Positions 6,614 through 17,588 of a stretch of 32,000 nt of DNA are shown one piece after another. The position numbers and the translations under genes are program-made. The stretch covers positions 540,001 to 572,000 of the forward strand of contig CAKQHZ010000001.1 in NCBI GenBank assembly GCA_934246625.1, in the 5' to 3' direction. Numbering within the stretch: position 1 is the stretch's first letter; every line of letters begins with the position of its first letter. This DNA comes from an uncultured Alphaproteobacteria bacterium (GTDB lineage Bacteria > Pseudomonadota > Alphaproteobacteria > Rs-D84 > CACZYB01). Under the pieces are notes generated by a model, which saw nothing but the letters and a program-made list of their open reading frames with translations, was not told where the DNA came from and did not search any database.

Positions 6614-6775
6614 TTATATTGCTAGAATAATAAAGAGAGAGGGTATGTATTTTAAAATAGCACCTATAAAATTATCCTGATAAAAAGTAATATTAAATTT
6701 ATTATCTATATAATACAATTTGTGTGTATATTCTCTAATTTTATCTACAGATTGTGATGTAGTATTTTCTACCAT
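6614..6775 (-). CDS. possible 53-aa ORF translationally coupled to the DUF45-like gene (below ORF-track cutoff)
   Basis: The ATG (6775-6773, minus) overlaps the upstream TAA by 1 nt (TAATG), the same junction used between hsdR and the DUF45-like gene. Translation is MVENTTSQSVDKIREYTHKLYYIDNKFNITFYQDNFIGAILKYIPSLFIILAI. The SD (GGGA) is weak. Confidence 0.3.
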   Translation of the reverse strand: MVENTTSQSVDKIREYTHKLYYIDNKFNITFYQDNFIGAILKYIPSLFIILAI

Positions 6776-7464
6776 TAATATTTTCCCAATAATTTATTTT
6801 CTAATTTTAGTTCAATATCTTGCCAATTAGGGATTTTAGATGATAATAATTTATAAAATTCTGTTGAATGAGTTTCATAATAATAATGGCAAAGTTCATG
6901 TGTAATAATATAATCAATTGCCTTTTTAGAGGCTTGTATTAAAGCTGGATTTAATATTATTTCATGTTTTTTTAAATAGCTTCCCCATCTTTTGTTTAAT
7001 TTTCTAACTTTTAATGTAGGTATAGGAAAATCAAATGTTTTCATTATTTCCTTTAATCTATTATTAAAGATTGTTATGGATTTTTTTAATAACCATTTAT
7101 TGAAAATGTGATTGATTTCATTTATTTTTTGAGGATGAGAAGAATAAAAAATAATTTTATTTCTTTCAACTTTTACTAAATTATTTAAACATGATTTTTG
7201 AATTATAAATTGATATTGTCTTCCAAGATACAAAATACTACTTCCAGATACAATATTTTTTTGTTTTACAGGATTAAACTTTGAAAAATATTCAATTTTA
7301 TCATTTATCCATTGTTTTTTCCTTTTAACAAAATCTTGAATTTTATCTTCGGTTGCATCTATTGGTGTTTTAATAACAACAGAACCATCAGGAAAAACTG
7401 TTGCAGAAATAGTTTTTCTCTGTTCTTTAATAATCTCTTTAATTCTTATATCAGATATAACCAT
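6775..7464 (-). CDS. DUF45 / YgjP-like (M48-type) zinc metallopeptidase
   Basis: HELCH (HExxH) is followed by a downstream His (ETHSTEFYKLL) near the C-terminus, and the size of about 230 aa fits the DUF45 (COG1451) layout. The start codon overlaps the hsdR stop (TAATG). Confidence 0.75.
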   Translation of the reverse strand: MVISDIRIKEIIKEQRKTISATVFPDGSVVIKTPIDATEDKIQDFVKRKKQWINDKIEYFSKFNPVKQKNIVSGSSILYLGRQYQFIIQKSCLNNLVKVERNKIIFYSSHPQKINEINHIFNKWLLKKSITIFNNRLKEIMKTFDFPIPTLKVRKLNKRWGSYLKKHEIILNPALIQASKKAIDYIITHELCHYYYETHSTEFYKLLSSKIPNWQDIELKLENKLLGKY

Positions 7465-10400
7465 TAAAACATCTCTTCATTTAATACAGCAATATCCCAA
7501 CATTTATTTGCTATCAACTCAACATCCGGTATAGTCAAATCAGATTCTATATCATCAAGTAAGAAATCTTCTATAGTTATAATAAATTTTCTTTTTATCG
7601 AAATATCATTATACCAATCTACTTTTTTCAATGATATTATTGTATCAACTATATGATTTATAATATTAGGAATATCATCATTTTCTATTTTATTTTCAAT
7701 TAACTCTTTGATATTTCTATAAATTGGATGAGTTGATTTTCTTTCTTTTAATTCATTTGGAATATCATTAGCTTCATAATTTTCAACACATTGTTGAATT
7801 TCTTTAACTTCATTAAATAGAGATGAAATATCTTCACGTTTTGCTTGTTCAAGATCGTGTAATAAAGCATTTAATCTTTCTGAAAGTTTACTATAAAAAA
7901 CTTCATCTCGTTTATATCTTTCACTAATAGTCTTTTTTGTCTGTGCAGCAATAGCAGCAGCCTTTGACCTATCAGATAGACCTTGCTTTTCGTCTTCAAT
8001 ATATTGATTAAACTCTCTCATATCAGACAAACTAATTTCTTTCGAAAGAATTTCAACTTCATTTGCAGTTACATATTTATCCAATAACTTATGTAATTGA
8101 TCCTTATATTTTGAAAAATCAACTTTTTCTGCTGCTGCCAATTGTGTAGTTTTTTTGATTTCAACGAATTTCTTCAAATCCATTTTATATCTATTTAACT
8201 TCTCATCATCAAACTTTTGTTGAAAATCGTATAAAGAGTAACAAGTTGCAAACATTCTAATAAACTGATTAACATTTGTATAAAATTTATTTTTTTTATC
8301 TTCATCTTTCATCAAAGCATGAACATAAGCATCAGTATTATTTGTGTCTTTAATATCCTTAAATTGCTCATGTATTTTTTGATAAATATTATCCAAAAGT
8401 TGTATTTGATCGTCAGTATTTAATAATGCTCCTTCTATATCCTCTGGATCATAATTACTAAATAATGTTAATGCATTTTTAAGATTTTTTGCATTTTTGG
8501 AATAATCTACAATCAATCCAGCAACCTTTGATTGCTTATTATTATCTCCATTATAAACTCTATTTACACGAGCAATTGCCTGTAAAAGATTATGATCTTT
8601 TAATTGTTTAGCCAAATAAAGAACAGTATCACAAGGAGCATCAAATCCAGTTAAAAGTTTATCAACAACAATTAAAATCTCACAACCATCAGGATTTTTC
8701 TTATAATCTTTAATAATGGTATCTTCTCGTTTTTCAAGAGATCCATATCTTCTTTTTTCCTCTTTTATAAAGTCGTTAACAACTTTTTTATGATTTGCAA
8801 GTTTATCTTCTTCTGTATCTGTCTTTTGTGTATCTGAAATGATAACTTCTGATTTTATTCCACCAAGCATATCCAATGCTTCCTTAAATAAAACAGCTGT
8901 ATATTTCGATGGAGCAACAAGCTGTCCCTTCAATCCAGTTCTCTGAAAATTATCTTTGAAATGCTTCCAAATATCAAAGGCAATCATTTCTACCCTAGCA
9001 GAAGTTTCCTCAAGCAATGACGCAGAAATAAACTTCTTTTCAAAATCCTTTTTTTGTTGTTCTGTAAAGTTCGATGAAATATTTTCATAAAATAAATCTA
9101 CCGTATTATTAACAGCTTGATCAACAAATCTTCCCTGATAAATAAGAGGAAGAATTGCACCATCCTCTTCAGCTTCTGATATAGTATATGCATCAATAAG
9201 TCCACCAAATTTCTTTTCTGTAATAGATTTATCCTTTGTCATCAAAGGTGTTCCTGTAAATGCAATTTGACAAGCACGAGGTAAAATTCTATTCATACTA
9301 TCATTTGCATCACCGCCTTGTGTTCTATGTGCTTCATCAATCAAAATAAAGATATTATCATCTTCATCCTTAAAAGAAGTAGTTGTTTCAAATTTATGAA
9401 CAAGCGTAGTGATAACATCAGTCGTTTTACTTTTAATTTTCTTAATCAAATCATCTTTTGATGTAGCTTGTTTTGCCTTAACTTTTATATTACAAGCATT
9501 AAAAGTATCATTAATTTGATCATCCAAATCAGTTCTATCAGTCACTACGATAACTCTTGGATTACTAATTGTTTCAATTAAATTCTTTACGAGCATAACC
9601 ATAGTTAAAGACTTACCACTTCCTTGTGTATGCCAAACAAGTCCACCTTTACGTTTTCCATTTTCTTCACGATTTTCAATTTTTTTCAAAATCTTTTTAA
9701 TAGCAAAATATTGCTGATATCTTGTAACTTTCTTTATGCCGTTATCATAAACGATAAAGTTTCTTACCAAATCCAAAAATCTTTCTGGTTCCAAAAGACT
9801 ATAAATTCCCCTGTCTTGTGGAGTTATATTTCCTTTTGGAGCTTGAACATAATTACTTCTTAACAAATCATTCGAAATCTTATCTAAATCTTCCTTACTT
9901 ATAGGATTATTTACAGACTTCAAAACCTTATCTTCAAAATCTTTACTAAAGTCTTTTTCCTTCCATACAGAATAAAAATCCCTTGGTGTTAGCATTGTTC
10001 CATATTTAATTTCGCTAACATTAGTTGCTATTAAAATTTGGGGATAAAGGAAGAATTTAGGAGTTTGATCTCCCTTTTGGTTTCTTATCATCTGAGTCAC
10101 AGCTTCATCAACAGGAACAGAACTTTTTTTATTTTCAATAACAGCAAAAGGTATTCCATTAACAAATAAAACTATATCAGGACGACGATTTTGCTCTTCT
10201 GATATTTCAAATTCAGGCACAACATGAAATGTATTTTTATCCCAATTTTTCCAATCAATAAACTTTAATTGTGGGGATGATTTTTTACCGTCAATAATCT
10301 CGGAAACAGCAACACCACCCAAAAGATTAGCATAAATATTCTTTGATACATTTACAACACCATCATCCATTTTTACCTTTTCCAACGAAATAATAGCATC

Positions 10401-10622
10401 CTTTATACTTTTATCAGAAATATTTGATCCGTTAATATTCCTTATTGCCTTAAATGCAATATCCCTAAGAATATATTGAGATTTACTGTCCCTATACTTA
10501 TCAATTTCATGTCTTCCAATATAGTTATAACCAAGATTTATAAGTTGAATTATTGCTGGAATTTGTGACGAGTTTGCTTCATCAAAGTTTGGTAAATAGT
10601 ATGGATCATTAATATTAGTCAT
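7464..10622 (-). CDS. hsdR: type I restriction enzyme, R (endonuclease/translocase) subunit
   Basis: 1052 aa. N-terminal PD-(D/E)xK-like segment RPDIVLFVNGIPFAVIENKK. SF2 helicase motif I is HTQGSGKSLTM and motif II is LIDEAHRTQ. Helicase C-terminal motifs LTGFDAP and QAIARVNR are present. It sits in an operon with hsdM and hsdS. Confidence 0.95.
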   Translation of the reverse strand: MTNINDPYYLPNFDEANSSQIPAIIQLINLGYNYIGRHEIDKYRDSKSQYILRDIAFKAIRNINGSNISDKSIKDAIISLEKVKMDDGVVNVSKNIYANLLGGVAVSEIIDGKKSSPQLKFIDWKNWDKNTFHVVPEFEISEEQNRRPDIVLFVNGIPFAVIENKKSSVPVDEAVTQMIRNQKGDQTPKFFLYPQILIATNVSEIKYGTMLTPRDFYSVWKEKDFSKDFEDKVLKSVNNPISKEDLDKISNDLLRSNYVQAPKGNITPQDRGIYSLLEPERFLDLVRNFIVYDNGIKKVTRYQQYFAIKKILKKIENREENGKRKGGLVWHTQGSGKSLTMVMLVKNLIETISNPRVIVVTDRTDLDDQINDTFNACNIKVKAKQATSKDDLIKKIKSKTTDVITTLVHKFETTTSFKDEDDNIFILIDEAHRTQGGDANDSMNRILPRACQIAFTGTPLMTKDKSITEKKFGGLIDAYTISEAEEDGAILPLIYQGRFVDQAVNNTVDLFYENISSNFTEQQKKDFEKKFISASLLEETSARVEMIAFDIWKHFKDNFQRTGLKGQLVAPSKYTAVLFKEALDMLGGIKSEVIISDTQKTDTEEDKLANHKKVVNDFIKEEKRRYGSLEKREDTIIKDYKKNPDGCEILIVVDKLLTGFDAPCDTVLYLAKQLKDHNLLQAIARVNRVYNGDNNKQSKVAGLIVDYSKNAKNLKNALTLFSNYDPEDIEGALLNTDDQIQLLDNIYQKIHEQFKDIKDTNNTDAYVHALMKDEDKKNKFYTNVNQFIRMFATCYSLYDFQQKFDDEKLNRYKMDLKKFVEIKKTTQLAAAEKVDFSKYKDQLHKLLDKYVTANEVEILSKEISLSDMREFNQYIEDEKQGLSDRSKAAAIAAQTKKTISERYKRDEVFYSKLSERLNALLHDLEQAKREDISSLFNEVKEIQQCVENYEANDIPNELKERKSTHPIYRNIKELIENKIENDDIPNIINHIVDTIISLKKVDWYNDISIKRKFIITIEDFLLDDIESDLTIPDVELIANKCWDIAVLNEEMF

Positions 10623-10624
10623 TT

Positions 10625-10972
10625 TTATTTATCCTTATTTTTTAATATATATTGTTGTAAATCATCCAAAAAACTATCAGGTAAAATAAACCACGTCGGA
10701 TATCCACGAGTATTGGGATAACCGGTACAAGTTTTATCTTTATTATTAGCATGCGTTTCGTATTCTGAAGAAGCAATATTCCAACGCATAGCTAAATGAA
10801 TTCCATTATCATCTTCTATTTTAGCAATAATATAATTTTTTCCATCATAAACCGTTCCAGAAAATTTATACCTCATCGGAGAAATACTTTTTTCATAATC
10901 ATAACAATTATAATATTTCCCTTTATATTCTATTTCTATTTTTTTCTTTTTTTCTAAAATTTTACTTACCAT
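10625..10972 (-). CDS. hypothetical protein (115 aa) between hsdS and hsdR
   Basis: SD AGGAG overlaps the hsdS stop, 8 nt before the ATG. Its stop lies 2 nt before the hsdR ATG. No recognisable motif and no hydrophobic segment. Confidence 0.65.
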   Translation of the reverse strand: MVSKILEKKKKIEIEYKGKYYNCYDYEKSISPMRYKFSGTVYDGKNYIIAKIEDDNGIHLAMRWNIASSEYETHANNKDKTCTGYPNTRGYPTWFILPDSFLDDLQQYILKNKDK

Positions 10973-10981
10973 ATCTATCTC

Positions 10982-12151
10982 CTATTTATTCACTTTTACT
11001 CTTATCTTTCCGGTAAGAAGTTGTTGCATAAGGCCTTTCTTTTGTGTTTTAAGAGCTTCTAATTTTTGATTAAGTAAGTTAATTTCATCATCTGCCGTTG
11101 ATAAAACATCCGCAATAGCTTGTTGTTCAGATATGTCGGATGGGATAAATAGTTTAATTTTTTTAATATCATTACTTCCAATATTTGGTTGAGCTCCACC
11201 ATAAGACATTCTAAGAATTTTATTATTAAAACGCATTAAATATTGATTGATGAAGCATTGATTACTTTTTTTAGCCCTTATAATTCCTACACGTTGGTTA
11301 AGAAGCATAGGAGTAACAGTTTTATTTATTCCCATTTTTCCTGTAGTTGCACCAGACATGGCGATTAATAAATCTTGTTGTTTAATACAATATTTTTGAT
11401 ATTTTTGCAAAGATGATGTGTCTAAAAAAACAGTATCTTTATCTAAAGATAATTTATCATCTTCTATATTAGATATACGAATTAAGGGAATACCATTTTC
11501 CTTAAAATCATTACTATCAAAAGAGTAACCTAAAATAAATTCTGCAATCTCACCTAACTTTACTTCTTTCCAAGGTTGTGTGAAGCCGGATAGGCGGGTT
11601 TTGTCGGTCAAGAGTTTTTGCATCAGGCCTTTTTTGAGGAGCTTTTTCTGCTCTATCAGATCAGACACCTTTTCAATCGCCTCATCCCAACAACTCAATA
11701 TCTCCGCAATCTTCTCCTGTTCAGCAAGTGGGGGAACAACTACTTTATACCAAGAAACTTGAGGAACTGTCAGTTGAGGAACACCTGTATTTTCATTAAA
11801 AAATTTAATACGACTACAAGAATAACTCATAAATTTTGTATTTATATTATTTTTTGGAATAGCTGTAATTAAACGTACTATAGGAGTGAACTTTCCCTCA
11901 CGATAAAAGACTTTTCCTATATCTCCTCTACCTGTAATAGTAATGCATTCATTTTTTATTTTATACTTTGAACTGTATCCATATAAACCTTTGTTTGTAA
12001 GAGCATTAGCATATATAGGATACGGATGTAAATCATCTTTTACATCAGAAAAACAATCCTTATCAACATCACCTCCTGCTGAAAAGGAAAATATTTCTCC
12101 AAGTTTTTTAATATCCCATCCTTTTGGTATATTTATGTTATTTGTTGCCAT
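10982..12151 (-). CDS. hsdS: type I restriction-modification specificity subunit (two target-recognition domains)
   Basis: 389 aa with two variable halves, each followed by a conserved helical region: PPLAEQEKIAEIL...KKGLMQKLLT and ISEQQAIADVL...KKGLMQQLLTGK. This is the classical HsdS architecture. Confidence 0.9.
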   Translation of the reverse strand: MATNNINIPKGWDIKKLGEIFSFSAGGDVDKDCFSDVKDDLHPYPIYANALTNKGLYGYSSKYKIKNECITITGRGDIGKVFYREGKFTPIVRLITAIPKNNINTKFMSYSCSRIKFFNENTGVPQLTVPQVSWYKVVVPPLAEQEKIAEILSCWDEAIEKVSDLIEQKKLLKKGLMQKLLTDKTRLSGFTQPWKEVKLGEIAEFILGYSFDSNDFKENGIPLIRISNIEDDKLSLDKDTVFLDTSSLQKYQKYCIKQQDLLIAMSGATTGKMGINKTVTPMLLNQRVGIIRAKKSNQCFINQYLMRFNNKILRMSYGGAQPNIGSNDIKKIKLFIPSDISEQQAIADVLSTADDEINLLNQKLEALKTQKKGLMQQLLTGKIRVKVNK

Positions 12152-13106
12152 TTGTTTTACTCTTATCCATATAATTAAATAATTCTAATTCTTTAATTTC
12201 TTTATCGACAATATCTATTTTTATTTGTTTTGTTTCTTTTTCTGTTGTTTTATAGATAGATAATGCTGTAATTTTTTTCTTTTTTAAGACATTATAATCA
12301 AAATTTAAAATTCCAGAAATTGATAGGTTAGCATAAACAAAATCTCCTTGAGTAAAAGATATTTCTTTATTTTGCATAAGATGTTTAAAGCCATCATCTT
12401 CCACAGAAAAATAAATTATATCTCCATCAATTAAAACTGGAATATCTCCTCTCTTTATAGTACTTCCTTGATATATTCCAACCCATAATCTTTTACTATT
12501 ATCGACTAATACTGGAGAAACTAATTCAATAATAACTTTATCAAAATTTTCTGAATATATTTTTTCTTCAGCTACATAATCAAAATTTTTGAATTGTGAA
12601 CGTTGAATCTTTGTATCAGACAAAATAGTATTATCTTTTTTGACTATTAAATTTTCAGATTTTAAACTTTCATCTTTATTTAATGCTTGATATTTTTTTG
12701 ATAATGCTTTTTTTATGTCAACATCTTCACAAACCTCATGTAATATACCTTGAAAGTTAGCTGTATCACAATCAACTCCTAAATTTTTAGCCTTCATTGC
12801 TAAATCTAATTTTTTATTTGCTTCATCGTATTTGTTTGAAAATAATATTGGCCATAATGCTACTAATAACGAAATCCAAGGAAGTATTTTTTCGCTATTA
12901 AATTTTATTTTTATAGTATCTTGGTAACACCCATTTTTAGGAATTGTAAGTTTTATTTCATAATAATCTTCAGATATTCCCATTTTATCTAAAACCGAAT
13001 TTAAAACTTTTATTGTAGCTTCAGACGCTATATTTCTAGCTTCTGGAACAATTTCGGCATTTAATACTTCATAATGAGATTCAAAAAATAAAACATTATC
13101 TTCCAT
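12138..13106 (-). CDS. hypothetical protein (322 aa) with one internal hydrophobic helix, embedded between hsdM and hsdS
   Basis: SD GGAG lies 9 nt upstream. The 3' end overlaps the hsdS start by 14 nt. Hydrophobic segment ILPWISLLVALWPILF at about aa 74-89. The C-terminal half looks beta-rich. I found no Walker A, HExxH, HEPN Rx4-6H or nuclease motif. Confidence 0.7.
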   Translation of the reverse strand: MEDNVLFFESHYEVLNAEIVPEARNIASEATIKVLNSVLDKMGISEDYYEIKLTIPKNGCYQDTIKIKFNSEKILPWISLLVALWPILFSNKYDEANKKLDLAMKAKNLGVDCDTANFQGILHEVCEDVDIKKALSKKYQALNKDESLKSENLIVKKDNTILSDTKIQRSQFKNFDYVAEEKIYSENFDKVIIELVSPVLVDNSKRLWVGIYQGSTIKRGDIPVLIDGDIIYFSVEDDGFKHLMQNKEISFTQGDFVYANLSISGILNFDYNVLKKKKITALSIYKTTEKETKQIKIDIVDKEIKELELFNYMDKSKTNGNK

Positions 13107-13124
13107 TTAATAGTCTCCATAATA

Positions 13125-13865
13125 TTAATTACTCTTATCACTAGTTTTATCTATATATTTAGCATCAATAACTTTTCCATTTTCTTTATTTTTTGGATTT
13201 TCTTTTTTATTAACAATGTTTATAATATTGTTAATAACAAGCATATTTGTTTTGTTATTTAATTTTTCTTTATTTATTAGATGCATTAAATGATCTATTT
13301 TATATTTTGCAGGCAAAAATTTACAAAAATAAAATATAAATTCCTTTATTTTGGAATATATTTTTTCAATAATGTTTTTATCATCATTAAATACTTTACG
13401 CAAAATTAACTTATCTAATTTTATAGATACATATCTTAATGTATTATAACTTTCGATGAGTTTATTTTGTAACATTCGCTTATATGGACTATTTTTTTCA
13501 CACTTTGAAATAATTTCATATTGATCTAAAATATATTGAGAATAGAAAAAAATTCGTGTAAATAATAGTGATGCCTTAGGATTTAAAAGTTGAAATTCTA
13601 AAAAATCTTTTTCTTTTGTCCATTTTAATATAAAATTAAACGCTTGAGATATATTTTTATTTATTACTTCAACTCTTTTACATTTTTCTAGTCCTGTGAT
13701 TTTATTATGTATAAAAAGAGAGATAAAATTTAACTGTTTATTGTAAAAAACATCCTGACGTTGTTTTTCCATTATTTTCATTTGTCTATACATCCAAAAT
13801 AATGTAACTAGACCAACAAATAATGTTATAACATGTTGATAATTTGCTAAATATATTTTTTCCAT
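13125..13865 (-). CDS. hypothetical N-terminally membrane-anchored protein (246 aa), embedded between hsdM and hsdS
   Basis: Strong SD AAGGAG lies upstream. N-terminal hydrophobic helix HVITLFVGLVTLFWMY. The rest looks helical and Lys/Asn-rich. No catalytic motif recognised. Confidence 0.7.
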   Translation of the reverse strand: MEKIYLANYQHVITLFVGLVTLFWMYRQMKIMEKQRQDVFYNKQLNFISLFIHNKITGLEKCKRVEVINKNISQAFNFILKWTKEKDFLEFQLLNPKASLLFTRIFFYSQYILDQYEIISKCEKNSPYKRMLQNKLIESYNTLRYVSIKLDKLILRKVFNDDKNIIEKIYSKIKEFIFYFCKFLPAKYKIDHLMHLINKEKLNNKTNMLVINNIINIVNKKENPKNKENGKVIDAKYIDKTSDKSN

Positions 13866-13889
13866 TTTAATACTCCTTTTATTATTTAA

Positions 13890-15398
13890 CTATTCTTTCA
13901 ATTCCAATTCTTTCAAATATTTATTCATTTTTTCTTCTATTTGTTTTATTTCTTCCTCAACTTTTTTTATTTCTGCACGAGTGTTTGGAATATCAACAAT
14001 TTCTTCCTCTTCATAGGTATCAACATAACGAGGAATATTAAGATTATATTCATTTTCCTCAATTTCTTTTATTGTTGCGATATGAGAGTATTTTTCAATT
14101 TCCTTACGATTTTTATATGTATCAACAATCTTTGCAATATGTTCATCAGAAAGGTTATTTTGATTTTTCCCTGGAACAAATTCCCTTGATGCATCAATGA
14201 ATAAAATATCTTTACGATTTTCATTTGCACCACCTTTTTCCCTTGATCTATCAAACACAAGGATTGCAACAGGAATACCAGTTGTTTGGAAAAGTCCAGC
14301 GGGAAGCCCAATAACTGCATCCAAAATATTTTCTTCAATAAATGCTTTTCTGATACGACCTTCGGCAGAACCACGGAACAAAACTCCGTGAGGAACAACT
14401 ACTGCAACACGACCTTCTTTTGCTTTTGCTGTTTCAATCATATGAGTAATAAATGCATAATCTCCTTTACTTGCAGGAGGCATACCTCTATGAAAACGAT
14501 TGTATTTGTCGTTATTGACTTTTCCTTCATCAGCCCATTTATCCAAAGAAAATGGTGGATTTGCAACAATTACATCAAACTTCATCAAACCATCATCATC
14601 AGTAAGTTTTGGTTCATTTATTGTATCACCCCACTCAATACGAGCTGAATCTTGTTTATGTAAAAACATATTCATACGAGCAAGATTGTATGTAGTTCCT
14701 GTTTTTTCCTGACCATACAATGCATAATTAGTTGAGCCGCTTTCACGAACTTCATTTCCCGCAATAATAAGAAGACCTGCAGAACCACAAGTTGGATCAC
14801 AAATCTTATCTCCTTCTTTTGGATTAGCTAATTTTGCAACAAGTTTACATATTTGTTTTGGGGTAAAGAATTCTCCCGCTTTCTTTCCTGCTTCCGAACC
14901 AAACTTTTCAATCATATACATGTATGAGTTACCAAGAATATCATCTCCAACTTCTGTTAAATCAATTTTATTAAAATCATTTAACAAATCTCTTATCATT
15001 TTGGATCGTTGAGATGTTGGTCCAAGTATCTTCTCATCATTAAAATCAACTGTAAAAATACCTTTTAATGCTTCATTTGCATCTTCAATCTTTCTAAGTG
15101 CAATATTTAATAATTCCCCAATATTACTTTCCGATTGATGAATATAAATATCTTTAAAAGAAGTTCCTTTTGGCATAATAAATCTTGAATTTTGAAGACG
15201 CATTTCAATACGAGCTTCATCATCACCATATTTCTCTTTTAACTTTTTGTATTCGACTTCATGCAAATCACTCATATATTTATAAAACAAAAGTGAAAGT
15301 ACATAATCCTTAAATACACCACTATCAACAGTTCCTCTTGAAGAGTCTGCAGCTGACCATAATGTTTTATTTAATTCGTCTTGAGTTATACTAGCCAT
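13890..15398 (-). CDS. hsdM: type I restriction-modification N6-adenine DNA methyltransferase subunit
   Basis: N-terminal HsdM_N-like segment LWSAADSSRG...LLFYKYMSD. AdoMet motif I is DPTCGSAGLL and catalytic motif IV is NPPFS. SD AAGGAG lies upstream. Confidence 0.95.
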   Translation of the reverse strand: MASITQDELNKTLWSAADSSRGTVDSGVFKDYVLSLLFYKYMSDLHEVEYKKLKEKYGDDEARIEMRLQNSRFIMPKGTSFKDIYIHQSESNIGELLNIALRKIEDANEALKGIFTVDFNDEKILGPTSQRSKMIRDLLNDFNKIDLTEVGDDILGNSYMYMIEKFGSEAGKKAGEFFTPKQICKLVAKLANPKEGDKICDPTCGSAGLLIIAGNEVRESGSTNYALYGQEKTGTTYNLARMNMFLHKQDSARIEWGDTINEPKLTDDDGLMKFDVIVANPPFSLDKWADEGKVNNDKYNRFHRGMPPASKGDYAFITHMIETAKAKEGRVAVVVPHGVLFRGSAEGRIRKAFIEENILDAVIGLPAGLFQTTGIPVAILVFDRSREKGGANENRKDILFIDASREFVPGKNQNNLSDEHIAKIVDTYKNRKEIEKYSHIATIKEIEENEYNLNIPRYVDTYEEEEIVDIPNTRAEIKKVEEEIKQIEEKMNKYLKELELKE

Positions 15399-15954
15399 TT
15401 ATTACTCCTTTTATAGTTTTATTGATTCTTTGAGTTTCAAGATTTAACAACTCTTTTAATAAAGTCGTTTTCCTCTCATATAATTTTACAATCTCCGAAA
15501 GTTTTTTTTGTTTTTCCAATGAAATCAATGGAATTTCAACTTGCTTTAAGGTTTTTAGTGTTATTGCAGGTATAGTCATAACTTCCTGCAAAGAAAATAA
15601 TTGTTTTTGACCTTCCGAGGAATTCAAATATGCAGAAATATATTCCGGTAAAATATTACTATCATCTTTTACTGAAAGAATAAAAATACCACCTGATGCA
15701 ACTGTGTTTTTGGAAGGATTAAACACGCAAGATTTAAACACCCCTCTATTTGTTATAAGTATACTGTTTTTATTAAGACAATGTTTTCTCCTAACTGTTT
15801 CATCAGAAACCTTAACCAAATCAGAAAAATCACCACTTAGAATATTTTTGGGCTGAATTACAGAAATAACACCATTATGTTCAGGAAGTATCTTACCACG
15901 AAAAGCATACCCTAAACAAATTTCACAAATAGAATCTAACATTACCACATTCAT
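15391..15954 (-). CDS. hsdS: half-size type I specificity subunit (single target-recognition domain plus one conserved helix)
   Basis: HsdS-like pattern: LDSICEICLGYAFRGK, ITNRGVF, LPEYISAYLNSSEGQKQL, then IPLISLEKQKKLSEIVKLYERK. There is only one TRD. I place the start at ATG 15954 because the ORF-track TTG at 15990 is itself the -35 hexamer of the promoter. ATG 15942 is an alternative start. It overlaps the hsdM start by 8 nt. Confidence 0.7.
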   Translation of the reverse strand: MNVVMLDSICEICLGYAFRGKILPEHNGVISVIQPKNILSGDFSDLVKVSDETVRRKHCLNKNSILITNRGVFKSCVFNPSKNTVASGGIFILSVKDDSNILPEYISAYLNSSEGQKQLFSLQEVMTIPAITLKTLKQVEIPLISLEKQKKLSEIVKLYERKTTLLKELLNLETQRINKTIKGVING

Positions 15955-15961
15955 ACCTATA

Positions 15962-15990
15962 AATATATAGTATAAAACGAAATCTGTCAA
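15962..15990 (-). promoter_or_regulatory. near-consensus sigma70-type promoter of the type I R-M operon
   Basis: Minus strand: TTGACA (15990-15985), 17 nt spacer, TATATT (15967-15962). The first in-frame ATG begins 7 nt after the -10 hexamer. Confidence 0.55.
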
Positions 15991-16251
15991 GAAAAATTTG
16001 CAATATTTTAATATTGTTATACTTTCTTTCTGCTTTAAGGTATTTCAAAAAATATTGGTATCTTTGTAAATGTTCTAAAATAATAAGTTTCAAGAAAAAT
16101 AATGCTTTTCATATTATATCCCTAATTTTAGTAAAGGGGTGGGGATTTTGAATAATTGTTTTTAATGGTGGATTGATTTTTTTAATCAGTAAAAATCCTT
16201 CAAAAATAAATTTTAAAGTTTGGATATTCAATAAAATCAAGGAGTTAATAT

Positions 16252-16325
16252 TGGAGCGGGTGAAGGGAATCGAACCCTCACGGCCAGCTTGGAAGGCTGG
16301 AACTCTACCATTGAGCTACACCCGC
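16252..16325 (-). tRNA. tRNA-Gly, anticodon UCC, CCA encoded
   Basis: The reverse complement is GCGGGTGTAGCTCAATGGTAGAGTTCCAGCCTTCCAAGCTGGCCGTGAGGGTTCGATTCCCTTCACCCGCTCCA. It folds as a cloverleaf: 7-bp acceptor GCGGGTG/CACCCGC, anticodon stem CCAGC/GCTGG with loop CTTCCAA, and a T-arm with GTTCGATTC. Confidence 0.93.
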
Positions 16326-16589: not shown

Positions 16590-17588
16590 ATGGAAGAAAT
16601 TATTTTCCCTAATAAAATAAGATTATTAAGAAAAATGGCTGGTAAATCTATGCAAGATTTGGCTGACCAACTTGGTGTAAGTTTATCTGCAATTTCAAAA
16701 ATTGAAAAAGGTTATAGAAAAATTGACCAAGAACAAATGATGATTGTTGCAAATTTCCTTGGTTGTTCTATGACAGATATTTTTATTTCTGAAGATGAAG
16801 ACGATGAAGCAATACTTGTTGCTTGGAAAAAAGAAATTGAAAGACGTGTCCAACTTAATCAAAATAATGGACTTAAAATTTTTGGTGCTGGCTTAAGACT
16901 TATCAGAAGTAATAAAGATATGACTTTGATGGAAGTCGCAGAAGCTGCTGGATTGACTTTGTCTGTGTATCATAGAATTGAAATAGGTCAACGTGAAATT
17001 TATGAACAAGAATTGTTTAATATTGCACGTGCTCTTGGTATGACAACCAAAGAAGTTTTAACAAAAATTTATGAGCTTAAAAAAGATGGAAGTCTTGATA
17101 GATTTATCAATTCAGGTAATAACCCAATCGATTCTATTGCAAAAATGAGTGATATTCTTAAAACAACAGAAAATGTTTATACTCCATCTGGTGTTGTTAA
17201 GTTTAATAAGGTTCTTGTTTATTCAAAAACTTTGGAAAATGGAAATATGATTGTGGATAAGGCAAACAAAGATTATGTCGTATATCCTGTAAGTGATAAA
17301 AAAGTTGAAAATATTTATGCTTTGGAACTTTCAAGCAGACGTCTTGGAAACATTATTCCTATGCGTTCAATTCTTTTTGTTGATGCAAATCAAGCTGTAA
17401 GAAGTGGTGATATTGCGGTTCAAGTTCTTCAAGATTTGGACGATAAAATGGAAATCCGCTTTGTTTCTGTGAAGGAAGACATTGATGGAAAGTTTTATGG
17501 TGTAATGTTCAATCCAGATGAAAAGGTTGAATTAAGCTCAGCAGATTTGGCAAAACTTCAAAGAGTTGTTCTTATTTCAATGAGCTAA
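16590..17588 (+). CDS. XRE-family transcriptional regulator with two tandem HTH domains and an S24/LexA-like (apparently non-catalytic) C-terminal domain
   Basis: HTH 1: IRLLRKMAGKSMQDLADQLGVSLSAISKIEKG. HTH 2: LRLIRSNKDMTLMEVAEAAGLTLSVYHRIEIG. The C-terminal 120 aa or so resembles the S24 beta-fold (..IIPMRSILFVDANQAVRSGDIAV..), but the Ser and Lys positions appear substituted. SD AAGGAG lies upstream. Confidence 0.8.
   Translation: MEEIIFPNKIRLLRKMAGKSMQDLADQLGVSLSAISKIEKGYRKIDQEQMMIVANFLGCSMTDIFISEDEDDEAILVAWKKEIERRVQLNQNNGLKIFGAGLRLIRSNKDMTLMEVAEAAGLTLSVYHRIEIGQREIYEQELFNIARALGMTTKEVLTKIYELKKDGSLDRFINSGNNPIDSIAKMSDILKTTENVYTPSGVVKFNKVLVYSKTLENGNMIVDKANKDYVVYPVSDKKVENIYALELSSRRLGNIIPMRSILFVDANQAVRSGDIAVQVLQDLDDKMEIRFVSVKEDIDGKFYGVMFNPDEKVELSSADLAKLQRVVLISMS

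Follow-up and report, generated by a model that had tools for sequence, protein, structure and literature searches.

Does a type I restriction-modification (R-M) operon that has several unfamiliar genes interleaved among its own encode an enlarged R-M machine, or does it carry those genes as exchangeable additions? This question is raised by a 32,000-nt stretch of contig CAKQHZ010000001.1 from an uncultured alphaproteobacterium (positions 540,001 to 572,000 of the forward strand), referred to here as the window, in which nine open reading frames (ORFs) all lie on the minus strand, from 15954 down to 6614. A preliminary description of this DNA recognized four canonical R-M genes (a half-size hsdS, hsdM, hsdS, and hsdR), a peptidase gene, a possible 53-aa ORF, and three genes of 246, 322, and 115 aa, and proposed that the additional genes are functionally integrated with the R-M complex. 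We found that the three latter genes occupy two slots within a conserved backbone and that the contents of these slots differ between close relatives. Judged by the gene content of those relatives, the three genes are exchangeable cargo and not enzyme subunits. We consider it likely that the locus is a cassette composed of a conserved type I backbone with two slots for exchangeable accessory cargo, and that the whole cassette is also subject to exchange.

A conserved backbone with two exchangeable slots

For comparison, we took gut-metagenome contigs whose HsdR clusters with that of the window at 90% identity. In these contigs, hsdM, hsdR, and the peptidase gene (window 13890-15398, 7464-10622, and 6775-7464, all on the minus strand) retain 92-97% nucleotide identity with other genes between them. 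Slot 1 lies between hsdM and hsdS (10982-12151, minus strand) and is occupied in the window by the 246-aa gene (13125-13865, minus strand) followed by the 322-aa gene (12138-13106, minus strand), and slot 2 lies between hsdS and hsdR and is occupied by the 115-aa gene (10625-10972, minus strand). In contig L061, slot 1 holds a gene for a 605-aa OLD/AriA/GajA-like ABC ATPase, and slot 2 holds genes for a DUF2188 protein (PADLOC family PDC-S16) and a 313-aa protein. Contig L062, which carries the cassette at the same chromosomal site as the window, has genes of 126 and 237 aa in slot 1 and the 115-aa gene in slot 2, and L063 has the 115-aa gene in slot 2 together with a slot 1 gene of 317 aa whose product is unrelated to the 322-aa protein. 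Slot 2 of L064 contains genes of 89 and 217 aa, its slot 1 being outside the contig coverage. In the more diverged contig L006 (~80% nucleotide identity), hsdM, the 246-aa gene, the 322-aa gene, and hsdS follow in unchanged order, and a gene for a 121-aa coiled-coil/zinc-ribbon protein replaces the 115-aa gene in slot 2. Comparison with related genomes, which the preliminary description had suggested, therefore gave a divided answer, in that the backbone and the peptidase gene travel together and the slot genes are swapped. The functional integration claimed for the three genes was not supported, as HsdR proteins at least 90% identical to that of the window are accompanied by unrelated genes in L061, L062, L063, and L064, and L006 has another gene in place of the 115-aa gene but retains the 246-aa and 322-aa pair.

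The breaks in homology are sharp and fall at gene boundaries, at 13858-13891 (the hsdM stop is at 13890), 10961-10966, 10625 (2 nt ahead of the hsdR ATG), and 6774-6776 (the end of the peptidase gene). The slots open immediately after the hsdM stop and after the hsdS stop, and the cargo blocks begin with their own Shine-Dalgarno sequence. The placement of the extra genes had been described as nonrandom, and this was confirmed, with two precise positions accounting for it. The edges of the slots bear no trace of a transposase, an integrase, or repeats. The 322-aa protein ends in nine residues (DKSKTNGNK) that recur in the unrelated 317-aa cargo protein of L063; they are encoded by the backbone and overlap the hsdS start, suggesting that the 14-nt overlap at this junction is a by-product of the slot rather than a coevolved coupling. 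The backbone, its slots, the exchange of their contents, and the purifying selection that acts on both slot 1 genes (described below) were demonstrated at the level of sequence. At least four fillings per slot in one backbone make this locus a clean natural example of modular defense-gene exchange. The slot breakpoints coincide with gene boundaries, and the chromosomal site around the backbone exchanges entire R-M cassettes as well.

In the cassette model that we favor, the backbone would consist of the half-hsdS, hsdM, hsdS, hsdR, and the YgjP-like zinc peptidase gene, with a slot after the hsdM stop and another after the hsdS stop. Each slot would accommodate one accessory gene or two, co-oriented with the backbone and each equipped with its own ribosome-binding site, and a promoter belonging to the cassette would drive this cargo along with the R-M genes. 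Cargo would be swapped by recombination within the flanking conserved backbone genes, and the entire cassette would be swapped against other type I cassettes via the conserved chromosomal flanks near a tRNA-Gly gene. The cargo genes would be accessory antiphage modules that gain coregulation and cotransfer from their position and that may back up R-M, and they would not be parts of the enzyme.

We considered the alternative that the three genes encode integral subunits or dedicated regulators of an enlarged R-M machine, as tight spacing, overlapping starts, a single strand, and one strong promoter match would all be expected of such an assembly. It also draws on two of the observations that weigh against the cassette model. 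None of the close relatives seen has an empty slot, and the 246-aa and 322-aa pair stays beside hsdM across ~20% nucleotide divergence in L006 and in a second genomic context in contig L069. The sole cargo-free backbone is a distant one (Proteus plasmid pZN5, with a peptidase ~35% identical). The conserved linkage of this pair would also fit a functional tie to the window hsdM, and the filled slots leave room for a backbone that depends on having some cargo. Also weighing against the cassette model, the relatives of the 246-aa and 115-aa proteins are confined to the same lineage, with no homologues outside it and no recognizable effector domain, and three promoter-like sites matching the consensus at 10 of 12 positions lie within the operon on the minus strand, at 13622, 12721, and 8977. 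Even so, an enlarged machine is very unlikely in our judgment. Nearly identical hsdM, hsdR, and peptidase genes occur with unrelated slot genes, L006 replaces the 115-aa gene and keeps the rest, and the Proteus backbone is free of cargo. In addition, genes of the family to which the 322-aa protein belongs (PDC-S42, see below) are found in either slot without a partner resembling the 246-aa gene, and 7 of 18 lie outside hsd loci. A backbone without the extra ORFs, which the preliminary description had named as a finding that would argue against integration, was thus nearly but not quite found, given that it comes only from the distant Proteus plasmid and that the close relatives carry other cargo. 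Since the claim of an expanded machine fails, the locus changes nothing fundamental in the understanding of type I enzymes.

The four canonical hsd genes were confirmed by their Pfam and NCBIfam domains and intact motifs. HsdM (502 aa) contains N6_Mtase (PF02384, 1e-104) and HsdM_N (PF12161) domains, matches TIGR00497 with 301 bits against a 243-bit cutoff, and has the catalytic motifs DPTCGSAG and NPPF. HsdS (389 aa) has two target-recognition domains and matches Methylase_S (PF01420, 4.5e-49) in two stretches. HsdR (1052 aa) contains HSDR_N (PF04313), SWI2_SNF2 (PF18766), and T1R_D3 (PF22679) domains, matches TIGR00348 with 479 bits against a 285-bit cutoff, and has intact GSGKS, DEAH, and D-x15-ENK motifs. 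By the presence of all three of these proteins, this is a complete type I R-M cassette. It appears most like type IC, to judge from the gene order hsdM-hsdS-hsdR and from HsdR, for which the only solved HsdR matching at E<=1e-5 was that of EcoR124I, a type IC enzyme (1e-34, in the motor domain). We also considered the MADS system (mad1-mad8) and rejected it: mad5 scored 34 bits against 400 and mad2 61.5 bits against 720, below the type I models, and mad1, mad3, mad4, mad6, and mad7 had no match in an NCBIfam/PADLOC search of the window proteins.

The first gene of the operon, the half-size hsdS, lies in an ORF at 15391-15990 on the minus strand that opens at TTG, the likelier starts being ATG 15954, GTG 15948, and ATG 15942. 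Its product matches Methylase_S (6e-14) and has one target-recognition domain and one helix. The half-hsdS is only ~20% identical to the full hsdS and is thus not a recent duplicate of it, its ratio of nonsynonymous to synonymous substitution rates (dN/dS) was 0.165 against L062, and a half-size S gene ahead of hsdM is also found in L062, L069, and Proteus pZN5. A shufflon between the two S genes was rejected, given that no long direct or inverted repeats were found between them and that the proteins are only ~20% identical. The recognition domains of the full-length hsdS are themselves swapped in L004, L006, L061, and L063, amid a conserved central region (11736-11567) and a conserved 3' region (from 11173). 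As a separate observation, the main hsdS of L062 (L062:3525-4190) is half-size as well (221 aa), so that this contig has two half-S genes and no full-length one.

Identity and possible function of the slot genes

The preliminary description had recommended a check against PADLOC, and in this search the 322-aa protein matched the candidate family PDC-S42 (PDLC05016, E=4e-18, 63.9 bits, where the PADLOC authors used a threshold of at least 50 bits), with residues 24-293 covering profile positions 29-294 of 320. PDC-S42 is a candidate single-gene family that was nominated solely because its members are embedded in R-M-type systems (10.1101/2024.01.29.577857), and our literature search found no papers mentioning it. 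The family is small, with only 50 cluster representatives among 1.84 billion in a full HMMER scan, and its genomic relatives, located in a genome scan run with a family sub-alignment, are mostly in Patescibacteria. Eleven of 18 strong homologues are positioned between hsdM and hsdR, on the same strand and in either slot. There is no conserved neighbor of PDC-S42 genes, and a gene resembling the 246-aa gene is absent beside the others, indicating that the 246-aa protein is not a family-wide partner. Pfam had no family for 21 PDC-S42 members. In one of the Patescibacteria relatives, a metagenome-assembled genome (L013, JAUCDK010000001.1), ORFs are fragmented under translation table 11, yet tblastn gave full-length hsdM, hsdR, and PDC-S42 matches, a pattern that probably reflects an alternative genetic code in this organism.

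The AlphaFold2 model of the 322-aa protein (predicted local distance difference test score, or pLDDT, of 82.6) has an N-terminal alpha/beta domain, a moderately hydrophobic helix (Kyte-Doolittle 1.44), a helical linker, and a beta-rich C-terminal part that resembles single-stranded DNA-binding proteins of the OB-fold/SSB type. A Foldseek search of this model against the PDB returned nothing below E=1e-3, the likeness being at the level of domains only (OB-fold/SSB and ferredoxin-like), and a search against a library of viral structures returned uncharacterized phage proteins at ~1e-9, one of them a DUF6575 protein. A Qxx[LMI][FL] motif was present within the last 15 residues in 15 of 33 full-length PDC-S42 representatives, compared with 1.1% of background windows. 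Several of these motifs read QLSLF, QLDLF, or QLPLF, which fits the bacterial beta-clamp-binding consensus, and the window protein has ELELF at this place. Based on the OB-fold-like domain and the family-wide C-terminal QxxLF motif, we suggest, with low confidence, that PDC-S42 proteins could act at DNA or at the replisome.

The other cargo proteins are more isolated. None of the 246-aa, 322-aa, 115-aa, and 53-aa ORFs has a Pfam family, none of the three cargo proteins matched PHROGs, and the 246-aa and 115-aa proteins have no family in Pfam, PADLOC, NCBIfam, or PHROGs and no known defense domain. Word-indexed homology searches with all three retrieved relatives solely from the same lineage. 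The 246-aa protein has a moderately hydrophobic N-terminal helix, and its gene travels with the cassette in L006 and in L069, where the protein is 91% identical. The 246-aa and 322-aa genes had dN/dS values of 0.23 and 0.29 between the window and L006, compared with 0.13 at the end of hsdM, which argues that both are real genes under purifying selection. The 115-aa protein had relatives only at 98% identity or above among 5.8 billion proteins; these copies differ by too few substitutions for selection on the gene to be measurable, and the AlphaFold2 model of the protein was unusable (pLDDT 55). By guanine-plus-cytosine content, overall and at third codon positions, the cargo is not clearly foreign, the peptidase gene being equally AT-rich.

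One interpretation of such orphan genes is that they have no part in defense and are selfish or neutral hitchhikers, or serve another role, tolerated in a defense locus that acts as a genomic sink, an idea discussed in the guilt-by-embedding study (10.1101/2024.01.29.577857). The lack of a known defense domain in the 246-aa and 115-aa proteins and the extremely narrow distribution of both are what this interpretation would predict. We nevertheless think it improbable, considering the purifying selection on the two slot 1 genes, the lack of transposase, integrase, or repeat traces where the slots begin and end, and the nature of the alternative occupants, which include recognized defense types (the OLD/AriA/GajA-like ATPase and PDC-S16 in close relatives and Shedu, RhuM, and DarTG in related backbones). 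From this analysis we infer that the cargo genes are accessory antiphage modules. A more specific proposal is that they represent new antiphage modules, in which the PDC-S42 protein, with its OB-fold-like single-stranded DNA-binding domain and beta-clamp-type motif, would be a replisome-directed factor acting alone or with the 246-aa protein, and the 115-aa protein would be a further defense protein or a modulator of R-M. We offer this proposal tentatively, as a possibility with a modest chance of being correct.

That accessory and defense genes are embedded on the same strand in type I R-M loci is already documented (10.1101/2024.01.29.577857, PMC12255303, PMC3874165). The guilt-by-embedding survey of Payne et al. 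(2024), by which the PDC families were defined, covered type I R-M, BREX, DISARM, and Hma, and in type I R-M and related systems, 96.7% of embedded genes pointed the same way as the host system (10.1101/2024.01.29.577857). The window resembles this set in that its hsd genes enclose co-oriented accessory genes, with neither pseudogenes nor mobility genes among them, and in that the 322-aa protein matches PDC-S42 over nearly its full length. It differs from the PADLOC PDC-S42 set in having a lineage-specific 246-aa gene ahead of the PDC-S42 gene and an orphan 115-aa gene in the second slot, neither of which is in PADLOC. A second precedent is the phage-active RRDM island of enteropathogenic Escherichia coli, with the order rptR-hsdM-hsdS-darT-darG-hsdR-M48 metallopeptidase, the authors of which regard the position between hsdS and hsdR as a potential recombination hotspot for defense genes (NAR 2025, PMC12255303). 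In both this island and the window, a single upstream promoter precedes hsdM and hsdS, then cargo, hsdR, and a zinc peptidase gene. When compared by description, the window differs from it in that it has no RptR-like repressor gene at its head, begins with a half-hsdS, has the position between hsdM and hsdS filled, and carries cargo unrelated to DarTG. What the window adds is a well-resolved two-slot picture, two orphan cargo genes, and a candidate family with a suggestive motif. The PDC-S42, 246-aa, and 115-aa proteins and the alternative cargo genes are all candidates for cloning.

A third precedent suggests a different role for the cargo. The type IC operon EcoprrI harbors an embedded anticodon nuclease gene, prrC (PMC3874165), and the hsd loci of Campylobacter jejuni differ between strains in the ORFs that they carry, among them the rlo (restriction-linked ORF) genes, according to the part of PMC2610378 that cites Miller et al. 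(2005). The window shares with these loci a type IC-like order with foreign ORFs between hsd genes. Its cargo could by analogy consist of latent toxins that are bound inactive by the R-M complex and freed by phage antirestriction, leading to abortive infection. The gene-order precedent for such a guard is exact (PMC3874165; PMC2610378), the window HsdR is closest to the type IC enzyme EcoR124I, and the cargo is co-oriented and probably coexpressed with the R-M genes. However, the cargo resembles neither PrrC nor RloC in sequence or domains, and neither a PrrC or RloC match nor an ABC ATPase or nuclease motif was found in the three proteins by Pfam, PADLOC, or NCBIfam. Free exchange among nearly identical backbones would also be unexpected if the cargo made specific contacts with HsdM, HsdS, or HsdR, and PDC-S42 genes occur away from hsd loci as well. 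A PrrC-type guard is therefore an unlikely explanation, and accessory modules that are carried by the backbone without being bound to its enzyme account better for these findings.

Operon layout and signals

The single-strand layout and the series of junctions in the preliminary description were reproduced exactly by our ORF map. The junctions are, in order, an 8-nt overlap, a 24-nt gap, an 18-nt gap, a 14-nt overlap, a 9-nt gap, a 2-nt gap, and two 1-nt overlaps (TAATG). All interior genes are preceded by a Shine-Dalgarno sequence of their own (GGAG type) or start in overlap with the gene before. A putative promoter, TTGACA-17-TATATT at 15990..15962 on the minus strand, lies in cassette-specific DNA and is the sole match at 11 of 12 positions in the 11.2 kb scanned. 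Promoter-like sites as a class were not in excess, with 85 found compared to 77 expected in shuffled sequence. The near-consensus promoter of the preliminary description is this site, the best in the region; the internal sites have 10 matches. The -10 element ends 8 nt ahead of ATG 15954, so that the first gene would be either leaderless or start further downstream. The shared strand, the tight spacing, the individual Shine-Dalgarno sequences or overlapping starts, and the one strong promoter match support an operon-like layout, and we infer from it that the cargo is cotranscribed with the R-M genes.

A hairpin scan found no minus-strand terminator-like hairpin inside the operon, as had been claimed. 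This carries little weight, because no such hairpin was found after the operon either, before the BPL_N gene 48 nt downstream.

The status of the 53-aa ORF (6614-6775, minus strand) was only partly upheld, given that its TAATG overlap with the peptidase gene is present but the ORF itself is doubtful as a gene. It spans the junction between cassette and flank at 6632, with its final six codons and stop in flanking DNA common to unrelated cassettes, and L061 and L064, in which the cassette has a different location, lack the ORF. Compared with L063, it has zero synonymous and three nonsynonymous differences, and its ribosome-binding site is weak.

Two minor observations concern translation signals. 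The translation-initiation regions of the 246-aa gene (13866-13887) and hsdM (15398-15419) are 86% identical over 22 nt, with AAAAGGAGTAWTAAA before the ATG, and this likeness may reflect a strong Shine-Dalgarno consensus. All 30 window ORFs of at least 90 aa stop with TAA (22) or TAG (8) and none with TGA; Trp is encoded by TGG 58 times in the long ORFs of the window, and conserved genes are unbroken by TGA. It seems from these counts that TGA is avoided in the window and is not reassigned to Trp. In contig L057, the gene caller places the end of hsdM at a TGA within the common flank.

The hsdR-linked peptidase and the chromosomal site

The gene after hsdR encodes a YgjP-like (DUF45) zinc peptidase that matches PF01863 (2.8e-46, 158.6 bits against a 26-bit cutoff; residues 17-223 against profile positions 1-206 of 207) and has the zinc-binding HExxH motif as HELCH at residue 189. 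The peptidase gene start overlaps the hsdR stop (TAATG), and the two genes stay together in L061-L064. A tblastn search that used the peptidase as query retrieved 509 plasmid records, 355 of them from Klebsiella, and in four of the six plasmid regions that we inspected, the peptidase homologue directly follows hsdR. The remaining two were a region ridden with insertion sequences and a region beside an integrase gene without hsd genes. Plasmid homologues of the window peptidase (H29 and H31) are named "M48 family metallopeptidase" in GenBank. For this one gene, the proposed integration with R-M found support both in the TAATG coupling to hsdR and in the plasmid homologues, and the peptidase appears from its gene neighborhoods to be truly linked to hsdR as a constant partner. 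A literature search for COG1451/YgjP with restriction-modification found no functional study of a YgjP-like peptidase as a partner of HsdR, making this very common partner an unstudied one. In contig L070, a nearly identical cassette (97% at the nucleotide level) contains a peptidase gene shortened to 167 aa (L070:4172-4675), which could be a natural knockout or an assembly error.

The four plasmid operons have the orders hsdM-RhuM-hsdS-Shedu-HAD-hsdR-peptidase (Neotabrizicola plasmid), hsdM-hsdS-ATPase-hypothetical-hsdR-peptidase (Vibrio campbellii plasmid), hsdM-hsdS-YecA-cold-shock-domain protein-hsdR-peptidase (Klebsiella pneumoniae virulence plasmid), and half-S-hsdM-hsdS-hsdR-peptidase without cargo (Proteus pZN5). 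They resemble the window operon in that the peptidase gene comes straight after hsdR and cargo occupies the same slots, and Proteus also has a half-size S gene before hsdM. Unlike the window cassette, which is chromosomal next to tRNA-Gly, these operons are plasmid-borne and distant, with other cargo or, in Proteus, none. The proteins of the Neotabrizicola, Proteus, and Vibrio operons are 50-61% (HsdM), ~34-36% (HsdR), and 33-36% (peptidase) identical to those of the window, and the Klebsiella peptidase is 27% identical.

At the chromosomal site, the whole cassette proved to be replaceable. We read 22 contigs encoding an identical EF-Tu. The flanks of the window are 97-99% identical to contigs L057 and L058 up to window position 16086 and again from 6632/6631, and comparison with these two contigs delimits a 9.45-kb R-M cassette (6632..16085, minus strand). 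Between 16086 and 6632, contigs with this EF-Tu (L057, L058, L059, and L060 among them) carry one of three unrelated type I cassettes. The window-type cassette was present in 5 of the 22 contigs, a cassette with the order hsdM-51 aa-PIN_12-hsdS-190 aa-hsdR in 4, and one with the order hsdR-113 aa-GIY-YIG-DUF2513-hsdS-hsdM in 13; an empty site was found in none. The alternative cassettes have their own embedded genes and, when read by eye, their own -35/-10-like sequences at the equivalent place. The site is located between tRNA-Gly and the BPL_N/tuf genes. The tRNA-Gly(UCC) gene (16252..16325, minus strand; ARAGORN and Rfam) is on the same strand as the cassette, ~165 nt upstream of its edge, in flanking DNA common to all cassette types. 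No integrase is present at the site, and for this reason, exchange of cassettes by homologous recombination via the flanks would be the simplest reading. The cassette is also found beyond this site, as L069 carries it from window position 16051 onward in a different genomic context. In the flank common to the three cassette types, window 16590-17588 on the plus strand encodes a 332-aa protein with repeated HTH_3/Xre-type domains, divergent from the cassette.

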